From Escherichia coli (GTDB lineage Bacteria; Pseudomonadota; Gammaproteobacteria; Enterobacterales; Enterobacteriaceae): a stretch of DNA of 64,000 nucleotides. The notes below the pieces were generated by a model. The model saw only the letters and a program-made list of their open reading frames with translations. It was not told the origin of the DNA and made no database searches. The DNA lies in assembly GCF_003334765.1 (NCBI RefSeq), contig NZ_QOWT01000002.1; one strand, written 5' to 3'. Shown piece after piece: positions 50,602 to 52,038 of this stretch (the stretch's first letter is position 1; each line of letters starts with the position of its first letter). The position numbers and the translations under genes were made by a program.

Positions 50602-52038
50602 TCAGCGTTTGTAACCCCCGCCCAACGCACCAGTGAGTTGAATGGAGGCATCCAGCCACTGCCCTTGCAATAACAGGCCATTGGCCCGCTCACGCAGCGC
50701 GGGGATTCTGGCTTCGCTGACGCGGGAACCAGCAATGATGCCCGCGTTAAAGCGCGCCTGCGCAAGACCTACCACACGCAAGGCATCGCGCTCAATTTGC
50801 GCCTGATGCTGGTTTTTCTCCGCCAGTGTCTGAACCTGACTGGCTGCCCGCGCCACGTCATTCACCGCTTCAACCACCGCTTTGTTGTAGCTGGCGATAG
50901 ACAAGTTGCTTTCGGCTTTTGCGATATCGAGATTGGCGTTAAGACGACCACTATCGAAAATGGGTAGCGTCAGGCCTGCCGTAACGCCCATTTGCTGCGC
51001 GGAATGACGGAACAGATCGCTTAAGTGCAACGCATCCTGTTGCAGGAAGGCCATCAGGTTGATGTCAGGATAAAATGCCGCTTTTGCCGCATCAATGGTG
51101 CTTAGCGATGACTCAACGTACCAGTGCGCCGCCTGCAAATCTGCCCGCCGGGCCAGTAAGGAGTACCCCAGTTCATCAGGAAGCTGGCTTGCCACTTTCG
51201 GCAACGCGACCGGTTTAAGCTTCAATGACTTTGTCTGGTTATTTGTAAGTGCGCTTAACCGTGCCTCAATAATTTTCATTTTCCCCGCGACATCGTTGAG
51301 CTGCTGCCGGGTTTTGCTGGCATTAATATCGGTTTCCACACCTTCAACTGAAGAAGTAATCCCGTTCTGATATAGCTGGCGATCGGTCGCGATAATGGTG
51401 TTCTGCTCTTTTTCTATTTGCTGCAAGACCGTGTTTAACGCCGCCTGGGTTTGCCACTCCCAGTACAGGCGGGCTACGCTGCCAGCCAGCAATTGGCGGG
51501 TTTGCTCGCGTTCCGCCGCCCGTGCTTTAACCGTACCCAGGCGGGCAGTAACCTCCGCCCGATTCTTTCCCCAGATATCGAGATGCCAGCCCGCCGTTAA
51601 GCCAAAAGTACCGTTGGTGTACCACGGGCCGGTCGTACCTGCGGCCGGATCGTTCAGAGCAAACGGCCCCATTAAGCCTTCTGCCGACATTTTTTGCCGC
51701 TCCATATCCGCCGAAAAGTCGATCTGCGGACCATCCTGAGTGGCAACTGCCTTCGCCTGGGCTTCAGCTAGCTGAATGCGCTGTTCAGCCACCTGCATAT
51801 CCGGTGCGTTCTGTAGTGCATTGTTAATTAAGGAAGTGAGTTGATTATCGTGATACTCCAGCCACCATTGGCTGTCTGGCCAACCATTTTTCAGCGCCGT
51901 GGGTAATGCGGTGTCAACTTGTGCAGCGGGCGTTTGCTGGCTTAACGCCTGGCGGGTTTCATGCATAGGCGCACACCCGGCCAGCATCAGTAACAGCGGA
52001 AAACAGGCGATGGCTGGATAAAAGGAATCACGATTCAT
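50602..52038 (-). CDS. mdtQ: Outer membrane efflux lipoprotein (OprM/NodT family), intact
   Basis: ORF 50602..52128; probable start at MNRDSFYPAIACFPLLLMLAGC (lipobox), about 478 aa, uninterrupted. Confidence 0.8.
   Translation of the reverse strand: MNRDSFYPAIACFPLLLMLAGCAPMHETRQALSQQTPAAQVDTALPTALKNGWPDSQWWLEYHDNQLTSLINNALQNAPDMQVAEQRIQLAEAQAKAVATQDGPQIDFSADMERQKMSAEGLMGPFALNDPAAGTTGPWYTNGTFGLTAGWHLDIWGKNRAEVTARLGTVKARAAEREQTRQLLAGSVARLYWEWQTQAALNTVLQQIEKEQNTIIATDRQLYQNGITSSVEGVETDINASKTRQQLNDVAGKMKIIEARLSALTNNQTKSLKLKPVALPKVASQLPDELGYSLLARRADLQAAHWYVESSLSTIDAAKAAFYPDINLMAFLQQDALHLSDLFRHSAQQMGVTAGLTLPIFDSGRLNANLDIAKAESNLSIASYNKAVVEAVNDVARAASQVQTLAEKNQHQAQIERDALRVVGLAQARFNAGIIAGSRVSEARIPALRERANGLLLQGQWLDASIQLTGALGGGYKR

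Follow-up and report, generated by a model that had tools for sequence, protein, structure and literature searches.

Outer membrane factors of the OprM type (OprM, CusC, CmeC, OprN, and MtrE; TC 1.B.17) consist of two OEP repeats, carry an N-terminal lipobox cysteine, fold into protomers of four strands and long helices, and serve RND pumps which are encoded by adjacent genes. VceC from Vibrio cholerae, the channel of the VceAB pump, is encoded along with its pump genes. In E. coli, the NodT-type lipoprotein channel MdtP belongs to the MdtNOP system (SdsRQP), and TolC, which is not lipidated (PMC13082787), acts as the main exit duct of the pumps. A 2026 paper counts MdtQ (YohG) among the N-terminally acylated channels (PMC13082787); according to a 2025 review on TolC, its gene is encoded independently and its function has not been elucidated (PMC11762307), and a 2025 paper on YohP terms the neighboring gene "the mdtQ pseudogene" (PMC12719787).

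The locus considered here lies in a stretch of 64,000 nt (the window) from E. coli assembly GCF_003334765.1, contig NZ_QOWT01000002.1. A sequence-only reading of this DNA had proposed an intact mdtQ gene with a lipoprotein signal, and had taken it as a second indication that the window does not originate from K-12. As set out below, the gene most probably (at a probability of about 0.96) represents an intact wild-type mdtQ, which codes for one of the four TolC-like outer membrane factors of E. coli and resides in a non-K-12 strain.

Results

Gene model and family assignment

The frame of mdtQ runs unbroken over 1437 nt from an ATG at position 52038 to the end of the stop codon at 50602 and comprises 478 codons plus the stop (Table 1). 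This agrees with the uninterrupted ORF noted before and adds its orientation on the minus strand, which had not been stated. The automatic ORF list begins the frame farther upstream, with a TTG at 52128 (508 aa), but this start was dropped, because the ATG at 52038 is better supported: the MdtQ equivalog profile NF008524 aligns from there over residues 1-478 of 478, RefSeq places the start of WP_001078139.1, which is encoded by the same DNA in strain 720632, at this codon, and the orthologs from E. albertii, Salmonella, and Citrobacter also open with MNR. In its DNA sequence, the gene shows not a single difference from the mdtQ genes of several isolates, among them strain 720632.

Table 1. Coordinates of mdtQ, its sequence elements, and the adjoining features in the window.
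Feature	Position	Strand	Evidence or remark
mdtQ CDS	50602..52038	-	ORF; NF008524, 1024 bits; DNA 100% identical to annotated mdtQ (WP_001078139.1) of strain 720632
Signal peptide and lipobox, residues 1-22 (MNRDSFYPAIACFPLLLMLAGC)	51973..52038	-	read from the sequence; Cys22 is the predicted acylation site
A5 run (TTTTT on the plus strand), codons 50-51, gene positions 148-152	51887..51891	-	A4 in K-12, causing a frameshift; alignment to b2139
First OEP repeat, residues 69-266	51241..51834	-	PF02321, E 2.2e-17; model strands 105-116 and 139-153, model helices 158-224 and 230-265
Second OEP repeat, residues 293-473	50620..51162	-	PF02321, E 9.8e-13; model strands 325-336 and 348-357, model helices 365-431 and 437-471
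Gly475, gene position 1425	50614..50614	-	synonymous, GGT in the window vs GGG in K-12 (T/G)
yohF (SDR oxidoreductase)	49788..50549	-	NF009384, 485 bits; 52 nt downstream of mdtQ
mdtQ-yohP divergent intergenic region	52039..52261	.	presumed site of the mdtQ promoter
yohP, 27-aa small membrane protein, divergent from mdtQ	52262..52345	+	NF011345, 67 bits, residues 1-27 of 27

The assignment of the gene to mdtQ, as made in the sequence-only reading, is confirmed by the score against NF008524 (1024.4 bits at a cut-off of 650) together with the synteny dusC-yohP-mdtQ-yohF-yohD, and no evidence contradicting this identity was found. The deduced protein also exceeds the cut-off of TIGR01845, the profile of the NodT subfamily of lipoprotein outer membrane factors (274 bits vs 210.05; query residues 16-475 on model positions 4-460 of 460), and contains the Pfam OEP domain (PF02321) twice. 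The closest paralogous family is represented by MdtP, whose profile NF007390 aligns over residues 17-477 with 356 bits (E 2.7e-106). Since this score stays below the cut-off of 597, and because no adaptor or permease gene is present in the neighborhood, an identification of the protein as MdtP was rejected; MdtP is part of an mdtNOP-type operon, whereas mdtQ stands alone.

As judged from the alignments with orthologs of 478-479 aa, which are co-terminal with the window protein at both ends, MdtQ is not truncated, and the homologs that are full-length at 27-60% identity mostly span query residues from ~5-20 through 474-478. VceC aligned up to residue 438 of its 442 residues. Neither a disruption of the frame in the full-length alignment nor a better reciprocal match to another outer membrane factor was found for mdtQ.

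Lipoprotein signal and structural model

The stretch LLLMLAGC, which had been regarded as a plausible lipoprotein signal, corresponds to residues 15-22 and indeed fits the lipobox pattern [LVI][ASTVI][GAS]C with L19-A20-G21-C22. In the alignment of 134 diverse MdtQ homologs, which share 25-94% identity with the query, Cys22 is nearly invariant (90% or more), and the family consensus at this site reads LxGCA; the orthologs from E. coli, E. albertii, Salmonella, and Citrobacter keep the motif [LM]-A-G-C-A-P-M-H, of which A-G-C-A-P-M-H is invariant. From these sequence features we infer that Cys22 is lipidated, and the residue in the +2 position, Ala23, predicts sorting of MdtQ to the outer membrane.

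An AlphaFold2 model of the monomer, calculated from an alignment of the 134 diverse homologs recovered by an exhaustive search, reached a pLDDT of 90.2 and a pTM of 0.86 (an earlier alignment of four close orthologs had given a pLDDT of 34.6 and was discarded). The model contains four beta-strands and four very long helices, which are assigned to the OEP repeats in Table 1, and as modeled the protein is a classic outer membrane factor protomer. Foldseek searches with this model retrieved CmeC, VceC (TM 0.87), CusC (TM 0.86), OprN, OprM, and TolC with E values of 1e-24 to 1e-14; MtrE is also among the structural relatives, and TolC is a more distant one. By sequence, VceC ranks first among the solved relatives (E 1e-39), followed by OprM, CmeC, SilC, CusC, OprN, and MtrE.

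The relationship to VceC (PDB 1YC9) extends over residues 51-477 of MdtQ and 19-438 of VceC, and the fold match corresponds to an rmsd of 3.8 Å at 26% identity. The OprM-type channels share 18-25% identity with MdtQ and resemble it in their two OEP repeats, their lipobox cysteine, and, according to the model, their protomer architecture, whereas TolC shows only ~12-13% identity and differs from the predicted lipoprotein MdtQ in lacking lipidation. In contrast to VceC and the OprM-type channels with their neighboring pump genes, MdtQ is devoid of a linked partner.

Comparison with K-12

That mdtQ is a pseudogene in K-12, as stated in the sequence-only reading, agrees with the annotation of MG1655 (NC_000913.3), in which b2139 (2227323-2228758) carries this label with a length of 1436 nt. 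The alignment of the window gene with b2139 shows only two differences, a single A deleted in K-12 and one synonymous change close to the 3' end. The deletion shortens the A5 run of codon 50 by one A, which shifts the frame and leads to a stop after 69 codons; this A4 pseudogene allele is absent from the window, where the A5 run is present.

Over its whole length, the window runs collinear with MG1655 2176766-2240720, from which it differs by 518 mismatches in two aligned blocks, 470 of them within the initial 42.9 kb and 48 within the final 21 kb. Moreover, 25 kb of it (20000-44999) agree with the wild isolate HSP425 at every position (100% identity) and are only a few bases off others, e.g., H3. 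Because of these mismatches and the identity to HSP425, the window is not from K-12, and the suggested origin from a non-K-12 E. coli is borne out. A single intact ORF of 1264 aa at 19709-23503 (+) extends across K-12 yehF and the yehH pseudogene (b4499), where in K-12 codon 275 is changed from TTA to the stop TGA and an additional G is present at 2199319 (after window position 22553); this ORF presumably was the other non-K-12 indication meant in the sequence-only reading.

Around mdtQ, the 18.4 kb from 45632 to 64000 contain only three differences from MG1655, two of them within mdtQ itself, and this part of the window therefore represents locally a K-12 haplotype without the deletion. As judged from this comparison, K-12 has lost a single base on a haplotype which in this region is nearly identical to that of the window. 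The distribution of differences from MG1655 over the window is mosaic, with ~12 in 2000-18000, 47 in 18000-20000, 10-82 per 2 kb over 24000-46000, and 3 in 45632-64000, a sequence pattern as expected from recombination blocks between relatives of phylogroup A.

Some further features of the window are noted here in passing. The intergenic region between osmF and bglX contains ~40 nt at ~42900-42945 which are absent from MG1655, have the direct repeat AAAGGGCG on either side, and adjoin a REP-like element. Two 80-nt copies with 91% identity occur in the preA-mglC interval (59791-59870 and 59907-59986), and Rfam places naRNA4, an sRNA family derived from REP/BIME elements, at 59883-59960 and at 646-716. 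Rfam matches above the gathering score were also obtained for a TPP riboswitch upstream of thiM (8571-8667, -), a Peptidase-S11 leader RNA upstream of pbpG (48154-48234, -), and an OrzO-P antitoxin RNA (27643-27718, +), the last of which implies a zor-orz type I toxin-antitoxin locus.

Occurrence and conservation of the intact allele

Of 5426 complete E. coli genomes, 5421 contain mdtQ, with a coverage of at least 80% in 5391. Counted by exact matches of 74-75-nt probes, which leave ~650 genomes with nearby SNPs in neither class, the A5 allele is present in at least 4406 of the 5426 genomes (75-nt probe) and the A4 allele of K-12 in 355 (74-nt probe). Among the matches listed for the A4 allele, 60 of 60 (of the 355) are laboratory strains, nearly all of them recognizable K-12 derivatives, and the carriers include MG1655, C600, DH5alpha, DH1, J53, and NCM3722. 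The extra-G allele of yehH, an independent marker of the K-12 lineage, is matched exactly in 352 of the 5426 genomes, and the nearly equal counts speak in favor of A4 likewise being a K-12 lineage marker.

The intact gene is thus the normal state in E. coli, and it is K-12 that deviates. That mdtQ is conserved as part of the E. coli core genome, although annotated as a pseudogene, has already been noted in the 2025 review on TolC (PMC11762307); the observation of an intact mdtQ outside of K-12 is correct, and it was known before. Since the intact state is that of the great majority of E. coli, it sets the window apart only from the K-12 lineage.

Among four intact alleles from different lineages, dN/dS values of 0.07-0.19 were obtained, which argues for purifying selection on intact MdtQ. 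The orthologs show 94% (E. albertii), 82% (Salmonella), and 81% (Citrobacter) identity, and those of Salmonella and Citrobacter are syntenic. Inactive or incomplete copies are nevertheless found outside of K-12. About 30 E. coli genomes contain only partial copies of mdtQ, and strain PSS-11 (NZ_AP027694.1, L010 401-1836) carries a separate frameshift by deletion of an A at gene position 575, outside any homopolymer, in a gene otherwise equal to the window allele; this deletion could be either a real mutation or an assembly error. Independent truncations have been reported for some isolates of Salmonella Typhi and Paratyphi A (PMC9241588). In view of these cases and the loss in K-12, the gene is evidently dispensable.

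Genomic context

The window shows the gene order dusC-yohP-mdtQ-yohF-yohD-yohC-pbpG, as does MG1655. The same order is conserved around mdtQ in Salmonella and also in Citrobacter, except that yohF is missing and yohP not called in the latter. A methyltransferase gene is located upstream of the Citrobacter mdtQ ortholog where no yohP was called (L011 5097-7440). As judged from the arrangement of the two genes, yohF is possibly co-transcribed with mdtQ. The pair is kept in Salmonella, and a yohF-like gene also accompanies a 60%-identical homolog, but the pairing is not universal, since the Citrobacter ortholog occurs without yohF. For an assembly of Nissle 1917 (L008 1890-2237), the annotation lists yohF as a pseudogene that contains an internal stop.

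A gene for a pump or a periplasmic adaptor was found beside mdtQ in none of E. coli, Salmonella, and Citrobacter, and MdtQ should therefore be regarded as a conserved orphan channel whose partners must be encoded elsewhere. The nearest non-orthologous homologs were read on contigs of only 2-3.5 kb and their contexts are suggestive only: a 42%-identical homolog is encoded directly 3' of an MdtO-like permease gene, another one is followed by a gene for a TetR-type regulator, and the third is the 60%-identical homolog with its yohF-like gene.

Upstream of the start codon (…TTATTCCCCCATG), no Shine-Dalgarno-like motif is evident. A scan for consensus promoters over positions 50400-52800 returned matches at chance level and no site inside the mdtQ-yohP intergenic region, a scan for consensus terminators around mdtQ likewise gave counts at chance level, and an Rfam scan of the 64-kb window yielded no match in or adjoining the gene. 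Note that the mdtQ promoter is without experimental confirmation according to the 2025 review on TolC (PMC11762307). In strain 720632 (NZ_CP025842.1, L002 2248-2945), an IS1A element is inserted 55 nt upstream of the mdtQ gene that is identical to that of the window, in the usual place of yohP, and this element could alter mdtQ expression there.

Discussion

The reading of the window gene as an intact wild-type mdtQ of a non-K-12 strain has to be weighed against explanations which take the extra A for an artifact or for a secondary event. The only inactivating difference between the two alleles is the length of an A-run by one base, and homopolymer runs are a common place for sequencing and assembly errors, so the strain might truly contain the frameshifted K-12 allele. 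However, the A5 run is matched exactly in at least 4406 independently sequenced genomes, compared to 355 with A4 (among those listed, 60 of 60 from laboratory strains), and the complete window, with its 518 mismatches, does not derive from K-12; an error of this kind is therefore extremely improbable. Hardly any more credit can be given to the idea that the window stems from a K-12 derivative whose mdtQ had been restored, either through reversion or through transduction of a short segment. The three differences left between positions 45632 and 64000 would agree with such a repair, but between positions 18000 and 46000 the window departs from MG1655 at hundreds of sites, which form mosaic blocks, yehF/yehH is intact, and the segment 20000-44999 matches the wild isolate HSP425 without a difference and other wild isolates almost perfectly.

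A different objection accepts the open frame and questions what it means: mdtQ may be silent or decaying, an orphan channel without a partner or a real promoter, in which case its being intact would reveal little about function. The upstream region without a promoter-like site above chance level or a Shine-Dalgarno-like motif, the lack of adjacent adaptor or pump genes in all three genera, the independent inactivations in K-12, PSS-11, and some Salmonella Typhi and Paratyphi A, and a function described as not elucidated would all be in line with this notion. They stand against dN/dS values across phylogroups that indicate continuing purifying selection on MdtQ, the preservation of length, lipobox, and both termini in orthologs of 81-94% identity, the synteny kept in Salmonella and Citrobacter, and the presence of the gene in nearly all E. 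coli genomes. On this evidence a silent or decaying mdtQ appears quite unlikely, and an intact gene maintained by selection outside of K-12 is the preferred reading.

By analogy to the known members of the family, the MdtQ precursor would be exported by Sec and acylated at Cys22 by Lgt, LspA, and Lnt, and the Lol system would take it to the outer membrane, because the +2 residue is Ala and not Asp. MdtQ would then trimerize to form a 12-stranded beta-barrel with a helical periplasmic tunnel, dock to the periplasmic adaptor of an inner membrane pump, and serve as its exit duct. As a weak best guess by analogy, the pump may be of the MdtO type or of the Emr/Vce type; the former is suggested because the nearest paralogs are MdtP-type channels which follow MdtO-like permeases. 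The similarity to MdtP and the MdtO-like context hint at the type of pump used by the relatives of MdtQ, and not at the partner of MdtQ itself.

A speculative and rather unlikely extension of this view is that the intact MdtQ of natural isolates represents an overlooked fourth exit duct for a pump without a channel of its own (of the MdtO/AaeB or Emr type), and maybe in part a substitute for TolC. Such a role could have been overlooked because nearly all efflux genetics of E. coli was done in K-12, where mdtQ is dead. Drug hypersusceptibility of mdtQ null mutants has been reported in a review. If these mutants were made in K-12, their phenotype would need either residual expression of mdtQ or a polar effect on yohF. 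The original susceptibility paper on an mdtQ mutant is reportedly that of Sulavik et al. from 2001.

The label "pseudogene" is inherited from K-12 and should not be applied to the mdtQ genes of other strains. The role of MdtQ is open to study solely in strains with an intact allele, such as the one carrying the window, or in K-12 after restoration of the missing base.
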